64,000 bases of DNA from an uncultured Anaerolineales bacterium (lineage in GTDB: Bacteria > Planctomycetota > Phycisphaerae > FEN-1346), in the NCBI GenBank assembly GCA_964449275.1, contig CAYVAM010000001.1, forward strand, positions 585 through 64,584. The letters are read 5' to 3'. Shown piece after piece: positions 10,881-31,136 of this stretch. Both the position numbers and the translations under genes were made by a program. Each line of letters starts with the position of its first letter. Within the stretch, counting starts at the first letter, position 1. A model generated the notes under the pieces. That model did no database searches. It had not been told where the DNA came from and worked only from the letters and a program-made list of their open reading frames with translations.

Positions 10881-11020
10881 GGTTGTAGCGCCGGGCTTTA
10901 TGCCCGGTCCCGATGTATCGGGATTGGCAGCGGCGCCGGCCAGGATGCGCCGGGGATAAACCCCGGCGCTACGGCCAAACCGCAGGAAATCGTCCCATGC
11001 CGGAAAAAGTTGCCACACGC
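10881..11020. repeat. MITE-like element, copy 1. It has 23-bp terminal inverted repeats (GTAGCGCCGGGCTTTATGCCCGG ... CCGGGGATAAACCCCGGCGCTAC)
   Basis: The terminal inverted repeat (TIR) contains a small hairpin (CCGGGC-ttta-t-GCCCGG). Copies are at 10881-11020, 20089-20175 and 20176-20320 (a tandem pair) and at 43820-43897 (inverted orientation and diverged). About 40 bp of conserved sequence extends to the right of the TIR (ccgcaggaaatcgtc.catgcc.gaaa..gttgccac). Confidence 0.8.
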
Positions 11021-11042
11021 CCGTCCCGGGAGCCGGCAGAAC

Positions 11043-14200: not shown

Positions 14201-14614
14201 CGCCTGGCGGCCTTGGGCGTCATCGACAACAACGACCCCCAACTGGGCATCGGCGACCTGACGGACCTGGAGGGCGAGCCGGTGCCCGAAGATTCCGTCC
14301 TCGTCAAGTATACCTGGTGGGGGGACGCGAACCTGGACGGCATCATAAACTCCAACGACTACGACAAGATCGACACTGCGTGGCTGCTGTGGGAGAACGA
14401 AGGCCGGGAGCCTGAGGGCGGTTTCCGGTGGGCGGTGGGCGACTTCAACTACGACGGCACGATCAACTCGAACGACTACGACAAGATCGACAACGCCTGG
14501 ATCCTGAGCGGCGGCGCCCCACTCGGCGGCGGTAGGCCCGCACCGACACCCGAACCCGCCACGCTCGCGCTGCTGGCCGTCGGCGCCCTGGCCATCGCGA
14601 GCAAGCGACGGTAG
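11246..14614 (+). CDS. Giant secreted surface protein (1122 aa) with a Gly-rich beta-helix-like body, two dockerin-type Ca-binding repeats and a C-terminal PEP-CTERM anchor
   Basis: Signal peptide (AVIAGVLVVASSAAAQ). Dockerin repeats (GDANLDGIINSNDYDKID; GDFNYDGTINSNDYDKID). PEP-CTERM tail (PTPEPATLALLAVGALAIASKRR). GGGAGG RBS is present. Confidence 0.75.
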   Translation: MRYRDVAAVIAGVLVVASSAAAQTDYLWMTDGDGSWTDSGNWAPPGFPDGPGDWALFDLPLTSPVTVDVNAPITVGRIVLADWNWDLPRFTLAPGPGGGSLTFDGGGAEASIVGFGRHEIAAPVILNDTLWVENTDEGELELLLSGSVAGGPGQDLILDGMRMNVDLMAPANPVQGAVIVYPTDPYSERAALTLTQQGTVLGASHFEAHLGAIIGLDNAVTNVNNRMDSPLRLYGGGLGLHGNAAATTETLPHVDLVMGSSSLGVNTFVGGDSATLHVETLDRAPGATIEFWGWELMTTAFILIGEPAGPTLDWGGLVGGWAVVSDCSDRDFATYAQGQGVMPVPVYANDINAANPRDNVLLDAPDMLLSPKTINSVKIAGGQALDLGQNLLNIASGGVLCTPDSGLPAGGPVVEGQAASSGAIRNGQLTAGGSLPEQPELIVHVWQDLEIAAAIVDNGLVPVSLTVSGSSLPWWEFARSFDPVLTLSGLNAYTGPTTICSARVAVDADERLGDPAGPLVLAGGMVQATSTFTMNRDVEVYDGAAFEVARDQTLTLAGEVGGEASELHVRAIDGEDPVSEQGIDPAAPRATLVLAAPNTFKSNIVVGAGGDDGPVPVLEVSEDANLGDPDQDIMLRGGIFRAAGSFAAHAERVFVIDWAGGAFDVDEGEVFSLDAPWQLEGDGSGMKIGLGKMVVSGFNPRYNGPDMEVAEGVLELRDPAALNGQHITVAGGVLNLRHDADVEFPDNVTVRDEGGINVDGSAAADPVLSIAGLELEDDAELTVTGGPGYSLAVEGDTTLLGWFGVIRTQTADLTLNGTLRMSESTAMLMKEGPATLNVSGPQAPAALTNFWATGGTTNIDTDGGGQGAPPARNLTVEVHGSGTVVNFRHSQHLAGLSLAGGGMANLTSGGTKTIVVNALAIDPDTHGAPAGTLDLTDNNLICDYTDGTSPFDAIAGWIASGFWDGTNGYWDGPGITSSAAAAQSQRLAALGVIDNNDPQLGIGDLTDLEGEPVPEDSVLVKYTWWGDANLDGIINSNDYDKIDTAWLLWENEGREPEGGFRWAVGDFNYDGTINSNDYDKIDNAWILSGGAPLGGGRPAPTPEPATLALLAVGALAIASKRR

Positions 14615-20088: not shown

Positions 20089-20320
20089 GTTGTAGCGCCG
20101 GGCTTTATGCCCGGCGGCCGTTGGCGGCGGCGCCGGCCAGGATGCGCCGGGGATAAACCCCGGCGCTACGGCCAAGGTTGTAGCGCCGGGCTTTATGCCC
20201 GGTCCCGATGTATCGGGATTGGCGGCGGCGCCGGCCACGATGCGCCGGGGATAAACCCCGGCGCTACGGCCAAGCCGCAGGAAATCGTCGCATGCCAGAA
20301 ATCGTTGCCACCCCCCCCCC
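20089..20320. repeat. Two tandem copies of the MITE-like element (20089-20175, 20176-20274) plus the conserved right-flank extension
   Basis: Same TIRs as at 10881. Copy 2 matches copy 1 at 10881 nearly base for base, including the internal tcccgatgtatcgggattggc hairpin. Confidence 0.85.
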
Positions 20321-26317: not shown

Positions 26318-28912
26318 GTGGCCAAACCGTTTTCGAGGGGAACCGCCGTGCGCACACGAACCGCCGTCATCGTTGTGACAGTGCTTCTGCTCGCAACCGG
26401 CGCCGCCCTTGCCGCCGGGAAGCACACGGCGCTCACCATCCACTGCGAGATCGGCAGTTGGATCATCTACGACTACGTCCTGCTGACGACCGACCCCAAG
26501 CCGCCGAAACTGACGAGCGAGAGCGATACGCTCCTCGAAGAAGCCCTCGCCGGACCGATGGCCGGCGCCGGCGACATCATCTTCGCGGAACGGCCCGCCG
26601 GTCCCGACCCACACTGGTACGCCAACATCAGTTACTACGCCGAGGACGCCAGTCGCAAGACCTACGTTCCCGGCGGCCGCCTCTGCCGCATGAATCTCAG
26701 GACCGGCAAGGTCAAGGTTCTCTTGGAGGACATGCAGGGCAACGTTCGCGACCCGCACGTCCACTACGGCGGCAAGAAGATCCTGTTCTCCTACCGCAAG
26801 GGCGGCGGTGACCACTACCACCTGTACGAGATCGGCGCCGACGGCGCCGGCCTCCGGCAACTCACCCGCGGCGACTACGACGATTACGAGGCCATCTACC
26901 TGCCGGACGACGACATTATGTTCGTCTCCACACGCTGCAAGCGCTGGGTCAACTGTTGGCTCACGCAGGTCGGCGTCCTGTACCGCTGCGGGCCCAACGG
27001 CGAGAACATCCGCATGGTCTCCTCGAACAACGAGCACGACAACACCCCCTGGCCGCTGCACGACGGCACCATCCTTTACACGCGGTGGGAATACGTGGAC
27101 CGCAGCCAGGTACATTACCATCACCTGTGGATCATCAACCCCGACGGCACCGGCCAGATGGCCTATTACGGCAACATGCACGGCGGCATCGTGATGATCG
27201 ACTCGAAGCCGATTCCAGGGACAGGGATGGTCGTCTCGATCTTCTCGCCAGGCCACGGACGCCGCGAGCACGACGGGCCGGTGACGATCCTCGATCCGCG
27301 CGGCGGGCCGGACGCCCGTCCCCTGGCCCGGACGATCAGCCGGGGCTCGAACTTCCGCGACCCGTATCCGTTCTCGGAGGACTGTTTCCTCGTGGCGCGC
27401 GGCCACGAACTTCTCCTGATGAACGGTCGCGGCGCCACGACAACGCTCTTCACGCTGCCGGAAGCCGACCGCAAGGCGCGCCTCCAGTTGCACGAACCGC
27501 GTCCGCTTCGCGCGCGGCCGCGCGAGCCCGTCATCCCGCCGCGCATCGAGCCGGAAGAGCAGACCGGCCGCCTGATGCTCGTCGATGTACGCCACGGCCG
27601 CAACATGGCCGGCGTCAAGCCCGGCGAGATCACACGGCTGCTCATCCTCGAAACGCTGCCGAAACCGATCAACTTCACGGGCGGCATGGAGCCCATGAGT
27701 TATGGCGGCACGTTCACACTGGAGCGAGTCCTGGGCACGGTGCCGGTCGAGCCGGACGGGTCGGCGTACTTTGAGGCGCCGGCGCTTCGGAGCCTGATCT
27801 TCGTGGCCCTCGACTCCGGCAACCTGGCCGTCAAGCGGATGCAGAGTTTCGTCACGCTCCAGCCCGGTGAGACGACCGGCTGTGTCGGCTGCCACGAGAA
27901 CCGGACCGACCGGCCGGTGCAACTCGCGCGCCGTGCGGCGTTTCGCCGGACGCCGAGCAAAATCCGGCCCGTCACCGGCGTGCCCGACGTGCTCGACTTC
28001 CCGCGCGACATCCAGCCGATCCTCGACCGGCACTGCGTGAAGTGCCACGGCTACGAGAAGACCCAGGCCGGCGGGCCGCGCTCGGGCGGCGTCATCCTGA
28101 CCGCCGACCGCGGGCCGATGTTCTCGCACAGTTACTTCACCCTCTCGGCCCGGCGCCAGATGGCCGACGGACGCAACCTCCCCAAGAGCAACTACCCGCC
28201 GCGCGGCCTCGGCAGCGCCGCCGCGCCACTGATGAAGAGGGTCCTCACCGGGAAAATCGGCGCCAAATCCTCGGACCGCGAAAAGACGATCCTGCGACTC
28301 TGGATCGACACCGGCGCGCCGTACCCCGGCACGTACGCGGCCCTGGGAACCGGCATGATAGGCGGCTACGCGCGGAACCACCTCGACCGGTCCGATACGA
28401 AATGGCCGAGCATGGTGGCGCTGGCCGAGGTCGAGAAGCGCCGCTGCGGCTCCTGTCACACCAAGCGCCTCAGACTGCCCGCCTCGCCGTCCGACAACAT
28501 GGCCATGCCGCCGTGGGCCGTCCGATACGGTGACCCGCGGCTCAGGTTCTCCCGGCACATCCTCTACAACCTGACGCGGCCGGAGAAGTCGTTGCTGCTG
28601 CTCGCGCCGCTGGCCAAGGACGCCGGCGGGTTCGGCACCTGCAAGAACGGGAAGGAGACGGCACGCGTTTTCGCCGACACGAGCGACGCCGACTATCAGA
28701 AACTTCTGGCCGCCGTCCGAGACACCGCCAAGCGCCTGAGCGAGATCAAGCGGTTCGACATGGCAGGCTTCCAGCCCCGGCCGGCCTATCTGCGCGAAAT
28801 GAAACGCTACGGCCTGCTCCCGAAAGACCAGGCCGACGGCGTGCCGGTGGACTACTACGCCCTCGAGCAGAAATACTGGCGCTCGTTCTGGCACGAGCCG
28901 GCCGCACAATAG
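26318..28912 (+). CDS. Secreted TolB-like beta-propeller protein with C-terminal c-type cytochrome (3 x CxxCH) domains
   Basis: Signal peptide. PD40-like repeats. Three CxxCH motifs (CVGCH, CVKCH, CGSCH), planctomycete PSCyt-like. The start may instead be GTG 26348, which has a GAGGGG RBS. Confidence 0.55.
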   Translation: MAKPFSRGTAVRTRTAVIVVTVLLLATGAALAAGKHTALTIHCEIGSWIIYDYVLLTTDPKPPKLTSESDTLLEEALAGPMAGAGDIIFAERPAGPDPHWYANISYYAEDASRKTYVPGGRLCRMNLRTGKVKVLLEDMQGNVRDPHVHYGGKKILFSYRKGGGDHYHLYEIGADGAGLRQLTRGDYDDYEAIYLPDDDIMFVSTRCKRWVNCWLTQVGVLYRCGPNGENIRMVSSNNEHDNTPWPLHDGTILYTRWEYVDRSQVHYHHLWIINPDGTGQMAYYGNMHGGIVMIDSKPIPGTGMVVSIFSPGHGRREHDGPVTILDPRGGPDARPLARTISRGSNFRDPYPFSEDCFLVARGHELLLMNGRGATTTLFTLPEADRKARLQLHEPRPLRARPREPVIPPRIEPEEQTGRLMLVDVRHGRNMAGVKPGEITRLLILETLPKPINFTGGMEPMSYGGTFTLERVLGTVPVEPDGSAYFEAPALRSLIFVALDSGNLAVKRMQSFVTLQPGETTGCVGCHENRTDRPVQLARRAAFRRTPSKIRPVTGVPDVLDFPRDIQPILDRHCVKCHGYEKTQAGGPRSGGVILTADRGPMFSHSYFTLSARRQMADGRNLPKSNYPPRGLGSAAAPLMKRVLTGKIGAKSSDREKTILRLWIDTGAPYPGTYAALGTGMIGGYARNHLDRSDTKWPSMVALAEVEKRRCGSCHTKRLRLPASPSDNMAMPPWAVRYGDPRLRFSRHILYNLTRPEKSLLLLAPLAKDAGGFGTCKNGKETARVFADTSDADYQKLLAAVRDTAKRLSEIKRFDMAGFQPRPAYLREMKRYGLLPKDQADGVPVDYYALEQKYWRSFWHEPAAQ

Positions 28913-29010: not shown

Positions 29011-29152
29011 GGGGGGCGCCTGCATCATCCGCCCAGTACCCACACGAGACGTGGTGAATTGGACGTGAAAAGTGCCGCGAGCGGCAGATTGTTACGGATG
29101 TGGACACCGGCCCTACGGCGCCTGGCAGCATGTGGCCGCAACGCGCCGCATA

Positions 29153-29192
29153 AGCGGACGTTTGGGGACGCCCCGGCCCCAAACGTTCCGCT
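29153..29192 (-). terminator. Terminator-like hairpin (15-bp stem) just 3' of the low-GC island operon
   Basis: The stem reads AGCGGACGTTTGGGG-acgccccggc-CCCCAAACGTTCCGCT. It ends 21 nt before the stop of the 29213 gene. Confidence 0.45.
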
Positions 29193-29212
29193 TGATGCGG
29201 ATGTTAGCACCT

Positions 29213-29740
29213 CTACTGCCGGTTGAACTCTCGCAACTCCCATTGTGCCACGGAAATCTGCCCCCCCGAAGCTTCTTCTGCGGCTCTGACGAGCATCCTG
29301 TACTCTTCTATGTCATCCATGTCCGTCCAGTTGATCTTTTGGGCACAACGGAGCTTCTTTATGATCGTCCTGTCAAAGGGACAATGCGGTGGTTCGGGAA
29401 ACCCACCCCAGCACCAGAGATACTTGAGGTAGAGATTGAGAATCTTCTGCGCAACGCCCAAGCGAAGCCTCCCGTTGGCCAGTAGATCGCCGTAGTGGTC
29501 TGACGCCCATGCTGCGAGCTCGGCGATTTCCTGAGTGTGCTCGGCGGAACTGACATCGCCTTGAGCGTACTTCGACCGAACGAGTTCCCGTACTCTTCGC
29601 TTGATCGCTTCGCGGAACTTGCCCTTTGAGGCATCGGACGCTTTGGCGTTGTATACAGATGCCCGCTGGAACGCTCCCCCGAAAGTGAGAATCCAGATTT
29701 CGTTCTCAAGGTAGGCGTGCTTCGCAGACTCGATGTCCAT
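29213..29740 (-). CDS. Hypothetical protein (175 aa) encoded in the low-GC island; possible Cys/His cluster (CWGGFPEPPHCPFDRTIIKKLRC)
   Basis: Complete ORF in DNA that is about 50-55% GC, against about 69% in the flanks. It lies 35 bp downstream of the PD-(D/E)xK gene on the same strand. No family was recognised. Confidence 0.55.
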   Translation of the reverse strand: MDIESAKHAYLENEIWILTFGGAFQRASVYNAKASDASKGKFREAIKRRVRELVRSKYAQGDVSSAEHTQEIAELAAWASDHYGDLLANGRLRLGVAQKILNLYLKYLWCWGGFPEPPHCPFDRTIIKKLRCAQKINWTDMDDIEEYRMLVRAAEEASGGQISVAQWELREFNRQ

Positions 29741-29774
29741 TCAGATCTTATCTCCCGTGCTAACGACTTGGCGA

Positions 29775-30425
29775 TTAGCGGCGGCGCAAAGCGCCGTCCT
29801 GCTGCATCGCCTTGTTAGCGAGCCCCCTCTGATTCTCTGCCGCTTCTTCAACGGCTTGTTTGAGCCTGGAGAAGTTAACCGGTTCCCCGGACAGCTTCCT
29901 CAGTGATGGCAGTGTGATCGAGTGCTGACTTCGTTTTCGGTTGTCGAGTGCCGTTGTTGGTAAGACAAAAAACTCCCATTGAGCTACGTTCAATGGATCG
30001 AGAGTGTTCTGATCGGTGTGTGCGAGTAGCGCGAAGACATACACGTCCGCCTGTCGTCGGGTATCCTCGCCCTGCCGGTTAGTGTCCCTGTCCCAAGTGC
30101 GGGTCTTCGGCACGCGAAAGGAGATTCGCGAGAGTCGGTCTTGATGCCAGCTCTGAATGTAGGCCGCGGACTTAACCTCAACGCGTGTGCCATCGGATGC
30201 CTTCAGGTCGTATGCGGCCCACTCCTCGCGGACGCTGTCTCCGGCAACGCCGAGGGCTTGGGCAACAAGGTACTCCGCGAGCACCCCCCGAGTCGCATTG
30301 CTCACGACATCTGAAGAACTCCATTGCCAGAAGCTCAGCAAGTCGAAGAGCAACCTCCGGCCCTCAACGTGAAACGGCTCGTGTCCCTCGCGCCGTTTCA
30401 GCTCGATCGGTCCAAGTTCGTTCAT
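29775..30425 (-). CDS. PD-(D/E)xK nuclease-like protein (about 216 aa) in the low-GC island
   Basis: A helix carrying E (GVLAEYLVAQAL) is followed by a D...EVK core (YDLKASDGTRVEVKSAAY), typical of restriction-endonuclease-like folds. The start is uncertain. The track ORF extends to 30548. Confidence 0.5.
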   Translation of the reverse strand: MNELGPIELKRREGHEPFHVEGRRLLFDLLSFWQWSSSDVVSNATRGVLAEYLVAQALGVAGDSVREEWAAYDLKASDGTRVEVKSAAYIQSWHQDRLSRISFRVPKTRTWDRDTNRQGEDTRRQADVYVFALLAHTDQNTLDPLNVAQWEFFVLPTTALDNRKRSQHSITLPSLRKLSGEPVNFSRLKQAVEEAAENQRGLANKAMQQDGALRRR

Positions 30426-30750
30426 CCGGTTCACCGTTGGTGTCCTGCGACTGGCTAACAGTGAGTATACAGACTGCATAAGATCTCGCCACGCCTCACA
30501 ACGTGTCCGGCGGGCTCTTGACGCCATGCCCGCCACGGTTGAGCACATAGGTCTGGACCTTCGGTCACGCCCCGATCGGACGTTCCCACGTTGTCAGGCG
30601 CTTGCCGTAGTGCTGACACTCCCGCCGACGCACGATCCGGCCACCTGATGCCCAGCGTGTATAGATTACCAGGAAGTCTCTGCATCCGCAAGCGCCGGAT
30701 TCCACGCCCTTCTGGTCGGGTGTGACCACGGAAGATGGCAGGTCTGCTGA

Positions 30751-30990
30751 GGCCCATTTTATGGGCCTTTGCCCGCCGCAGGCGGGTGTAGCCCCGGCCC
30801 TCTGGGCCGGGGCCGTCAAGCGGCCTGCGTTTCCTCTTCTTGTCTTCTCTCCCGCGGTGGCCCGCCTGAGGCGGGCCACCGCGGGAGAGAAGAAGATGGT
30901 CTCTCGCCCCGAAAAGCCGGGGCCAAAGGCCCCGGCCTATACGCCGCTTCGCGGCGGCAAGGCGGCTGGAAGCCGCCTCAAACCAGTAAC
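30751..30990. other. Dense cluster of at least 7 consecutive GC-rich stem-loops, including a perfect 24-bp-stem hairpin (30844-30894)
   Basis: Hairpins: ggcccattttatgggcc; gcccgccgcaggcgggt; gccccggccctctgggccggggc; TCTTCTCTCCCGCGGTGGCCCGCC-tga-GGCGGGCCACCGCGGGAGAGAAGA; ccggggccaaaggccccgg; ggcggctggaagccgcc. Confidence 0.7.
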
Positions 30991-31136
30991 GGCAAACCGC
31001 TGCCAGAAAAATGGTCACGTCCTTCTGCTCCTTCTCCTTGGCCTGCGGCTTGCGACCCTCCGGCCGAAGAGCGAGAGGCAGCGGGGGTTGCCCATCGGCA
31101 CAACCATCCGGTACAATACGCCCCGGGAGGTGACCT

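Follow-up and report, generated by a model that had tools for sequence, protein, structure and literature searches.

What do two adjacent genes of low GC content encode in this genome, and do they form one system? The genes, here called A and B, lie within a 64-kb stretch of DNA that was analysed as a whole and is referred to as the window; their coordinates and those of the associated features are given in Table 1. The original prediction had read them as a compositionally foreign cassette made of a nuclease and a partner, serving in defence or in addiction. The two genes are indeed co-directional on the minus strand and tightly spaced, with 34 nt between them instead of the 35 bp given earlier. 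The longest open reading frame of gene A spans 29775..30548 (257 aa), with an N-terminal extension that is not conserved among homologs. Since the homologs begin at MNELGPIE, the 216-aa gene listed in Table 1 is the likely one. The Shine-Dalgarno-like GGGAG is located approximately 12-16 nt upstream of the ATG of gene B. Neither a hairpin nor a terminator-like site was detected in the A-B spacer by the hairpin and terminator scans, and the single minus-strand terminator call nearby, at 29997-29975, falls inside gene A.

Table 1. Positions of genes A and B and of their associated features in the 64-kb window.
Feature	Positions	Strand	Remarks
Stem-loop	29152..29193	minus	20 nt past the B stop; -38.6 kcal/mol, z -3.8; without U-tract
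Gene B	29213..29740	minus	175-aa all-helical protein; large family without Pfam model; candidate HhH-GPD-like modified-base glycosylase/sensor
Conserved core of B	29372..29458	minus	G95-V-A-Q-K99, helix, Gly/Pro-rich loop GGFPEPPHCPF, D123
A-B spacer	29741..29774	minus	34 nt from A stop to B start; Shine-Dalgarno-like GGGAG (read from the sequence)
Gene A	29775..30425	minus	216-aa predicted PD-(D/E)xK endonuclease, T4 endonuclease IV/DenB-like family (PF26887)
Catalytic core of A (predicted)	30171..30275	minus	E51 30273-30275; D73 30207-30209; E83-V84-K85 30171-30179
Upstream intergenic region	30426..31136		GC-rich hairpins
Perfect 25-nt palindrome/inverted repeat	30843-30893		Within the upstream region; -57.2 kcal/mol, z -10.2

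The GC content was 55.5% in B, 58.2% in A and 56.8% over the two genes together, compared with 67.2% for the window. The pair is thereby placed approximately 4.3 standard deviations below the window (standard deviation of 1,213-bp windows 2.4%) and is the lowest such stretch across all 64 kb. Similarly, GC3 was 0.676 and 0.673 in the two genes versus 0.88 and 0.91 in the two flanking genes. The foreign composition proposed for the cassette is thus borne out by both measures, and the dip is real and limited to A and B, although the earlier figure of 50-55% was slightly low. In a related genome, a syntenic copy is 92% identical to A and B and the flanks are 80-95% identical, which speaks against a recent transfer. 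A and B were acquired horizontally, probably long ago. No other defence genes were found near them in the window or in the related locus L001, where the surrounding genes encode glycoside hydrolases and enzymes of a similar kind.

Hairpins had been predicted on both sides of the pair. The upstream cluster is real and includes the perfect 25-nt inverted repeat; this palindrome has no second copy in the window, is not a dispersed repeat and did not match any known RNA family. Relatives carry PQQ-repeat and GH172 genes at the place of the upstream intergenic region, in which the promoter is presumably located. The downstream hairpin, reported earlier as a terminator at 29153-29192, is equally real as a structure (Table 1), but it has no T-run and was not called by the terminator scan. 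A canonical intrinsic terminator 3′ of B is thereby ruled out, and the stem-loop may be a terminator of the transcript or an element that stabilises it.

According to the original prediction neither protein belonged to a family that could be named. For A this was wrong. A strong precomputed match to PF26887 (Phage_T4_End_IV; E <= 1e-5 class) was present on an open reading frame identical to the A of the window (locus L180), as well as on relatives; no mention of this accession was found in the literature. The Pfam set used in the direct scan of A and B did not include the PF26887 model, and direct scans of A with Pfam, NCBIfam and PADLOC gave only a weak match to the PADLOC model mREase_II (methyl-directed REase; E 0.0027). 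The sole PHROG match of A was phrog_1360, which is DenB-like (E 0.014). A PDB sequence search with A returned nothing relevant and no match to NhoI or Eco15I, and a tblastn search of phages with A failed to retrieve T4 denB.

The nuclease core of the type helix-E / D...EVK that had been noticed in A is real, with E51, D73, E83, V84 and K85 invariant in all 59 homologs (59/59). A has an alpha/beta core carrying the E, D and (E/D)xK residues and is, by predicted fold and motif, a PD-(D/E)xK nuclease. Its predicted fold is closest to that of the BisI family of modification-dependent restriction enzymes (NhoI, Eco15I; PMC11347163), to which it has no sequence-level similarity. The core is also the only part that aligns with T4 DenB (AEYLVA/AEFFVA, YDL/WDV and RVEVKS/RVEVKT). 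Residues 45-87 of A were aligned to residues 56-106 of DenB by both hhalign and hmmsearch, with weak statistics and over approximately 55 residues only. No credible alignment was obtained beyond this core, and the C-terminus of DenB, including Ser176, is without a clear counterpart in A.

T4 DenB and A thus share the family HMM match and the E...D...EVK core, and both would be small DNA endonucleases. The known role of DenB lies in discriminating the modification state of cytosine. Its substrate is single-stranded DNA with unmodified dC, and its expression kills E. coli (PMC1635256); its Ser176 is located within the C-terminal region that determines specificity (PMC2175332). Because DenB cuts unmodified dC-ssDNA and its tie to A is limited to the catalytic core, the specificity of DenB is not transferable to A. 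DenB is moreover a phage weapon against unmodified dC-DNA of the host, whereas A is carried on chromosomes and plasmids by bacteria whose DNA is ordinary.

The A family is widespread, mobile and patchy, displays 60-80% identity between phyla and includes genes on 15 plasmids. In 77 of 80 A loci the gene is solo, with no conserved neighbour and no conserved small partner. A cognate methyltransferase does not recur either, with three N6_Mtase and one N6_N4_Mtase among 148 neighbour proteins, and no methyltransferase gene is present in the window or in locus L001. One A relative follows Mrr within a DUF499/DUF1156/SNF2 island, others are found near DarTG and PIN-FitA, and PADLOC matches are present among the neighbours of A relatives. 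In some metagenomes, recurrent proteins of 425 aa (P0028, P0029, P0031 and P0089) combine A with an Ogg2-type glycosylase domain (domain C), and the A relatives bearing this fusion are 77% identical to A. Domain C matches Ogg2 structures (3FHG, 3FHF/3KNT and 3N0U) at E 2e-6, and its invariant residues K138 and D156 are aligned to the catalytic Lys and Asp of Ogg2.

For B, the lack of a nameable family was confirmed in so far as no Pfam model exists for it. The family comprises 1,824 clusters at 50% identity and occurs in both bacteria and archaea. The gene order hsdM-hsdS-B-hsdR was found in approximately 17 of 79 B loci, often with a gap of 0-4 nt to hsdR. In Type I restriction-modification (R-M) operons, the gene of the PrrC anticodon nuclease sits between hsdS and hsdR; B fills the same slot in these loci and has no similarity to PrrC. 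The other neighbours of B include PDDEXK_4/PDC-S26, Fic, Abi_2, GmrSD, GIY-YIG, ParE and HEPN-MNT. The family is patchy and is also found apart from R-M systems, and the B of the window lies outside any R-M operon. No match to B was obtained in phages or plasmids. Among ten long members of the family, the only Pfam domain was a single response-regulator receiver, and another fused member (P0218) carries DUF7225.

Ten residues of B (G95, K99, N102, K106, Y107, W109, P117, H119, P121 and D123) are invariant in 66/66 homologs, and the invariant polar and aromatic residues also include W138, Y147 and E168. A confident model of B places a helix at residues 94-111, a loop at 112-123 and a further helix at 124-128. 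The motif formed by G-x3-K, the Gly-Pro loop and the Asp is found on this helix-loop-helix, with a K-to-D spacing of 24. The canonical spacing in HhH-GPD proteins is 18-19, and the loop of B is 5-6 residues longer than in EndoIII/OGG1. The cluster of Cys and His residues noticed earlier in B is present but not conserved, and a conserved Cys/His metal site is ruled out by C120, in place of which 9 of the 66 homologs have F or Y.

The best structural match of B is an 8-oxoguanine repair enzyme, and the resemblance is faint. Foldseek of the B model against the PDB found nothing (best E 2.1), the B profile against the PDB gave nothing relevant, and B had no match when scanned directly with Pfam, NCBIfam and PADLOC. 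Homology between B and the domain C fused to A relatives was rejected, with a null result for single sequences and an hhalign profile-profile Prob of 2%. From motif and model, B may be assigned, weakly, to the HhH-GPD-like proteins as a very divergent member that would flip out modified bases and then excise or sense them. K99 and D123 are its candidate catalytic pair.

The conserved system of a nuclease plus its partner, as originally envisaged, did not emerge from the comparison of loci. Only in the lineage of the window do A and B lie side by side (loci L001-L004, L009 and L089/L180). Outside this lineage, A was adjacent to B in 0/79 B loci and present at a distance in 1/79, and B was found in 0/79 A loci. 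An R-M cluster of Lutibacter, with the order A-hsdM-hsdS-x-B-x-hsdR, contains both genes, non-adjacent and approximately 4 kb apart. A conserved pairing of A and B is absent, and the two are not a fixed pair. Both families are patchy and have defence and mobile genes as neighbours elsewhere, in agreement with the original prediction.

Several described defence systems resemble parts of this locus. END nucleases consist of a nuclease and a sensor of EndoIII/Ogg fold, lack a methylase, occur in defence islands and were experimentally validated to restrict hypermodified phage DNA (Yee et al. 2025, PMC12191111). One of them, END-Mag, joins a PD-DExK nuclease to a sensor that resembles archaeal Ogg and restricts phages with modified guanine, and in another, END-PaCF1, the sensor is without catalytic residues (PMC12191111). 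The fusions of A with domain C have the architecture of END-Mag and match the same Ogg structures, a likeness drawn from description and not from sequence. In END nucleases the modules are parts of one polypeptide, whereas A and B of the window are separate genes and B is not detectably homologous to domain C. The END sensor is catalytically inactivated in END-PaCF1, whereas K138/D156 are retained in domain C and K99/D123 in B.

With regard to B, the small sequence-orphan HhH glycosylases Dag1-17 are encoded in low-GC mobile regions and defend against 7-deazaguanine phages, and the active site of Dag1 consists of Lys, Asp and Trp (bioRxiv 10.1101/2025.10.29.685425), which may be compared with the invariant K99, D123 and W138 of B. 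Further defence glycosylases are Brig1 (UDG fold; PMC11078745) and Brig3 (PMC13160076). The Dag and Brig proteins are small single genes, orphans by sequence, in low-GC mobile or defence contexts, with a glycosylase fold recognisable by structure only. B is likewise a small single gene, low in GC in the window and found in R-M, defence and toxin-antitoxin contexts among its relatives. Neither the accessions of B homologs nor the B motifs were found among the Dag1-17 table entries listed (Getz et al. 2025).

We give about an even chance to the reading that A and B make up a small defence islet of ancient acquisition, composed of two separable modules directed against modified DNA, and form neither an addiction cassette nor an obligate pair. 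Modules A and B, separately mobile elsewhere, would have been joined as one operon in the lineage of the window. As an orphan endonuclease without a cognate methylase, A would cut foreign DNA containing non-canonical bases in the manner of Type IV restriction, with a putative dependence on modification. B would flip out the modified base and then excise or sense it, as the Dag and Brig glycosylases do. Together they may function as a split END nuclease, B as the base sensor or glycosylase and A as the nuclease, and each would be expected to act alone as well. A more specific proposal, which we advance tentatively and hold to be rather unlikely, is that B represents a new divergent class of modified-base glycosylases or sensors that is regularly placed between hsdS and hsdR of Type I R-M operons as a backup against phages whose hypermodified DNA evades classical restriction, and that it was here recruited beside a DenB-like nuclease as a split END-type system.

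The cooperation could also be obligate, with cleavage licensed only once the B sensor has bound A and with both proteins inactive on their own. A split END nuclease of this kind would fit the single operon with its 34-nt gap, equal GC3 and single downstream hairpin, the natural fusion of the A family to an Ogg2-like domain with END nucleases as precedent, and the occurrence of A and B within one Lutibacter R-M cluster. It is nevertheless improbable, given that adjacency is confined to one lineage, that Lutibacter is the sole other locus with both genes and has them approximately 4 kb apart, that homology of B to domain C was not detected, and that both families are mostly solo. We give a similarly low weight to the view that A is a selfish homing-type or orphan restriction endonuclease and B a protein without enzymatic activity that assists or regulates Type I R-M systems, or else some helical adaptor, the two sharing a permissive spot by chance. 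Against this view, at least ten invariant polar or aromatic residues in B (among them K99, H119, D123, W138, Y147 and E168) are of the kind seen in active sites or ligand pockets, B is found outside R-M systems too, and the A family includes fusions to a base-recognition domain, an arrangement shared with modification-dependent restriction enzymes.

An addiction cassette, one of the options of the original prediction, is very unlikely; A would then be a toxic DenB-like nuclease and B its immunity protein. The lethality of T4 DenB expression in E. coli (PMC1635256), the compact operon of two genes and the toxin-antitoxin genes near relatives agree with such a module, but neither B nor any other conserved small partner is present in 77/80 A loci and A is absent from 78/79 B loci. 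The order is also atypical, with the nuclease first and then a larger, highly conserved, enzyme-like partner, and the B family is about as widespread as the A family, with unrelated neighbours. The least credible reading, to which we attach hardly any probability, is a housekeeping DNA repair pair of a base-excision glycosylase and a nuclease acting on AP sites or mismatches. Both the best structural match of B and the clear match of domain C are 8-oxoguanine repair enzymes, as would be expected of such a pair. Housekeeping genes with conserved synteny and typical GC had been named at the outset as the finding that would speak against a defence or addiction cassette; instead, GC and GC3 are strongly atypical, the synteny of A and B is conserved in one lineage only, the distribution is patchy across phyla with 60-80% identity between them, and the neighbours elsewhere are defence, toxin-antitoxin and plasmid genes.

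A and B are short and easily cloned, and the point mutants can be named, so that the hypotheses can be tested directly on existing phage panels of known DNA chemistry. A gives the T4 DenB family a cellular context, and the fusions of A with Ogg2-like domains tie that family to the principle of END nucleases, in which sensor and nuclease modules can be exchanged. Should B prove to be a glycosylase or sensor of modified bases, this would account for a gene that recurs without annotation within Type I R-M operons, and a large and phylogenetically broad family would be added to the glycosylases whose part in prokaryotic immunity has come to light recently.

The low-GC island of two genes on the minus strand, put forward in the original prediction, was borne out by ORFs, GC and GC3. 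It consists of gene A, encoding a PD-(D/E)xK endonuclease, and gene B, separated by 34 nt and with GGGAG preceding the ATG of B. Since the homologs of A are 200-220 aa long with their N-terminus at the window's Met42 (MNELGPIE), the shorter reading in the table is the likely gene. The GC content was 55.5% in B, 58.2% in A and 56.8% in the pair versus 67.2% in the whole window; the predicted dip is present, but the pair lies slightly above the approximately 50-55% proposed. It is the lowest-GC stretch of 1,213 bp within the 64 kb, about 4.3 sd under the mean, and its GC3 was 0.67 versus 0.88-0.91 for the flanking genes.

Local Pfam, NCBIfam and PDB sequence searches with A gave no match, and PADLOC gave a single weak one, a methyl-directed REase. 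Nearly all of the at least 2,549 clusters of A homologs in a large protein database bear the precomputed PF26887 tag (Phage_T4_End_IV), some together with PDDEXK_16, and on contig L180 an ORF with the same sequence as A of the window carries the tag at strong grade, so that A does belong to a family that can be named, contrary to what was first thought. The sole PHROG match of A was the DenB family (E = 0.014), in which T4 DenB itself is found (E = 4e-97). In a direct comparison with T4 DenB, the catalytic core alone aligned, with weak statistics (AEYLVA/AEFFVA, YDL/WDV and RVEVKS/RVEVKT). E51, D73 and E83-V84-K85 were invariant in 59 homologs, which upholds the nuclease-type D...EVK core predicted for A. 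Based on this core and the PF26887 and DenB-family matches, A is a genuine PD-(D/E)xK endonuclease with a restriction-enzyme fold and a distant cellular relative of DenB.

A metagenome scan revealed more than 580 confirmed loci of A, of which 80 were retrieved. One was the window itself, which has B; in two, A was fused to another domain; and 77 had neither B nor that domain. The 148 proteins neighbouring A fell into 134 Pfam families, and no recurrent partner or recurrent methylase was found among them; R-M, Cas3, Zorya, DISARM, HEPN and transposase genes were scattered there. In one DUF499/DUF1156/SNF2 island A came immediately 3′ of a gene of Mrr type, and at other loci it had a sulfatase and a permease on either side, with PIN-FitA or DarTG modules near. 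A was present on 15 plasmids of cultured bacteria, annotated as hypothetical every time, and was rare in phages and viral contigs. The GC of A genes was 58-60%, independent of the host. That members labelled Planctomycetes, Acidobacteria, Gemmatimonadaceae, Latescibacterota and Desulfarculus share 60-80% identity indicates that A spreads horizontally.

Protein B was named by no library searched (Pfam, NCBIfam, PADLOC, PHROG and profile versus PDB). Its homologs formed 364 clusters at 90% identity, and an exhaustive profile search gave 1,824 clusters at 50% identity, 704 with E ≤ 1e-30, from many bacterial and archaeal phyla. The invariant set in the alignment is unusually sharp (Y58, G95, K99, N102, L103, L105, K106, Y107, W109, P117, H119, P121, D123, W138, Y147, E168 and L169). 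The Cys/His cluster originally predicted for B is not conserved, since position 120 holds F or Y instead of C in 9 of the 66 members. B is predicted with confidence to fold, and the order of G95-V-A-Q-K99, helix, Gly/Pro-rich loop, D123 and helix resembles the HhH-GPD signature, although the loop is 5-6 residues longer. Since Foldseek against the PDB gave no match, and profile searches with B matched no HhH-GPD family, a glycosylase or base sensor is a tentative assignment that we hold at somewhat below an even chance. The closest published analogues would be the Dag glycosylases, HhH-superfamily sequence orphans from low-GC mobile regions that protect as single genes against 7-deazaguanine phages, with a Lys/Asp/Trp active site in Dag1 (bioRxiv 10.1101/2025.10.29.685425); Brig1 (PMC11078745) and Brig3 (PMC13160076) are additional analogues.

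Among 79 loci surveyed outside the window's lineage, the commonest arrangement was hsdM-hsdS-B-hsdR (HsdR in 17, HsdS in 18 and HsdM in 16), in many cases with 0-4 nt between B and hsdR. Further direct neighbours included PDDEXK_4/PDC-S26, PbeA, Fic/SoFic, Abi_2, AAA_15, reverse transcriptase, GmrSD, GIY-YIG, NYN and Type ISP. The PDDEXK_4 neighbour, PDC-S26 among the PADLOC candidate systems, is about 400 aa long and occurred with B in 5-7 Type I R-M operons. The nearest B homolog outside the lineage had a ParE toxin gene on one side and a HEPN-MNT pair on the other. B was not found in plasmids or INPHARED phages and was rare in IMG/VR, and its fusion partners were heterogeneous and uninformative.

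Coordinates of features in the window and in retrieved contigs
Feature	Location	Strand	Remarks
B ORF	29213..29740	-	175 aa, ORF reading
A longest ORF	29775..30548	-	257 aa
A likely gene	29775..30425	-	216 aa
Stem-loop 3′ of B	29152-29193		-38.6 kcal/mol, z -3.8
Hairpin cluster, GC-rich	30763-30955		Between A and GH42-like gene
Perfect 25-nt inverted repeat	30843-30893		-57 kcal/mol, z -10
Dispersed 56-nt and 142-nt repeats	10881-11022, 20121-20176, 20176-20317		
A-hsdM-hsdS-x-B-x-hsdR array, Lutibacter	L075 1285-11322	Co-directional	First x, 250-aa ORF; second x, 512-aa ORF
PDDEXK_4 gene before or after B	L033, L043, L054, L060, L081 and others		Type I R-M operons
Family C beside Type I R-M or BREX	L169 5648-6627; L172 4549-6663		C directly after DUF7662 or DUF7662-DUF6884-GIY-YIG nuclease protein

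The adjacency of A and B was confined to the window's lineage (L001-L004, L009 and L089/L180). Judging from identities of 92.1% in the cassette and 79.8-94.8% in the flanks, the common ancestor of the window and its syntenic relative L001 already had the pair. The same locus with the same flanks, and B 91% identical, occurs in L009 (CAZIJC010000194.1). Its title names an uncultured Anaerolineales MAG, seemingly at odds with planctomycete-type flanking genes, and the contig may therefore be mis-binned. In both the window and L001 the pair is surrounded by glycoside hydrolases and similar enzymes, and no defence island was found there. In L001 (4151-7315) the GH42 gene is set apart from the pair by a PQQ-repeat gene and a GH172 gene; both are absent from the window (30426-31136), where the L001 intergenic DNA survives only as scraps of 46-97 nt (30618-30714, 31021-31066). 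The GC of this GH172 gene is low as well (58.5%), so the foreign island may be larger in L001. We noticed that a 71-nt segment in the 3′ end of the flanking 864-aa gene (28778-28848) is 93% identical to L001 7052-7122, intergenic between GH172 and gene A.

The stem-loop predicted to terminate the pair is stable but lacks a terminator's U-tract. The upstream hairpin cluster was confirmed as several GC-rich hairpins including a perfect palindrome, with no second copy in the window and no Rfam match for the palindrome; it may represent a promoter, an operator or a recombination scar. Elsewhere in the window, a dispersed GC-rich 56-nt repeat with an internal hairpin (three copies) and a 142-nt repeat (two copies, 94% identity) look REP- or MITE-like, and two tandem 70-nt copies in a coding region (14320-14506), at 77% identity and a spacing of 117 nt, code for a recurring motif of NSNDYDKID type that may be dockerin-like or calcium-binding.

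In recurrent proteins of about 425 aa (one cluster with 11 members and several more clusters), a domain of the A family, 77% identical to A of the window, is fused to a C-terminal domain, family C. This family also occurs on its own, in proteins about 210 aa long, some named endonuclease III or thermostable 8-oxoguanine glycosylase by JGI, and its profile matched Ogg2-type 8-oxoG glycosylase/AP lyases (E = 2e-6), MjOgg, SsOgg, EndoIII and TmOgg. K138 and D156 are invariant, with a spacing of 18, and line up with the positions changed in crystal entries for variants of the top match. Standalone C is positioned 3′ of Type I hsdR or BREX brxL and preceded by DUF7662 or a DUF7662-DUF6884-GIY-YIG protein; family C retains its catalytic Lys and Asp. 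Family C and the adjoining protein look like another candidate glycosylase-plus-nuclease defence pair. The A-C fusions have the architecture of the END nucleases, in which a nuclease is joined to an EndoIII/Ogg-like module recognising hypermodified bases. The likeness is drawn from the published description of END-Mag, an experimentally tested PD-DExK nuclease plus sensor that restricts phages with modified guanines, the sensor being matched by its authors to the same Ogg structures as family C (PMC12191111).

Neither A nor B has an obligatory partner, which counts against both the predicted addiction module and an obligate two-component system. The only other genome found with both, Lutibacter sp. 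TH_r2, has divergent copies (46% and 35% identity). The pair is two separable modules juxtaposed in one lineage. A and B may cooperate facultatively, with B as a base sensor or glycosylase beside nuclease A, as suggested by their common operon and matching GC3, by the fusions of A to Ogg2-type domains and by the array in Lutibacter. The island is real and defence-like, as originally proposed, but not a categorically new nuclease-plus-partner system, with A in a catalogued family and the adjacency lineage-specific. Restriction of DNA carrying non-canonical bases is the most likely function, in keeping with what was published in 2024-2026 on defence glycosylases and END nucleases. The family of A is already catalogued and functionally unstudied. 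Family B, large, without a Pfam model and with a stereotyped slot in Type I R-M operons, is the most valuable lead.
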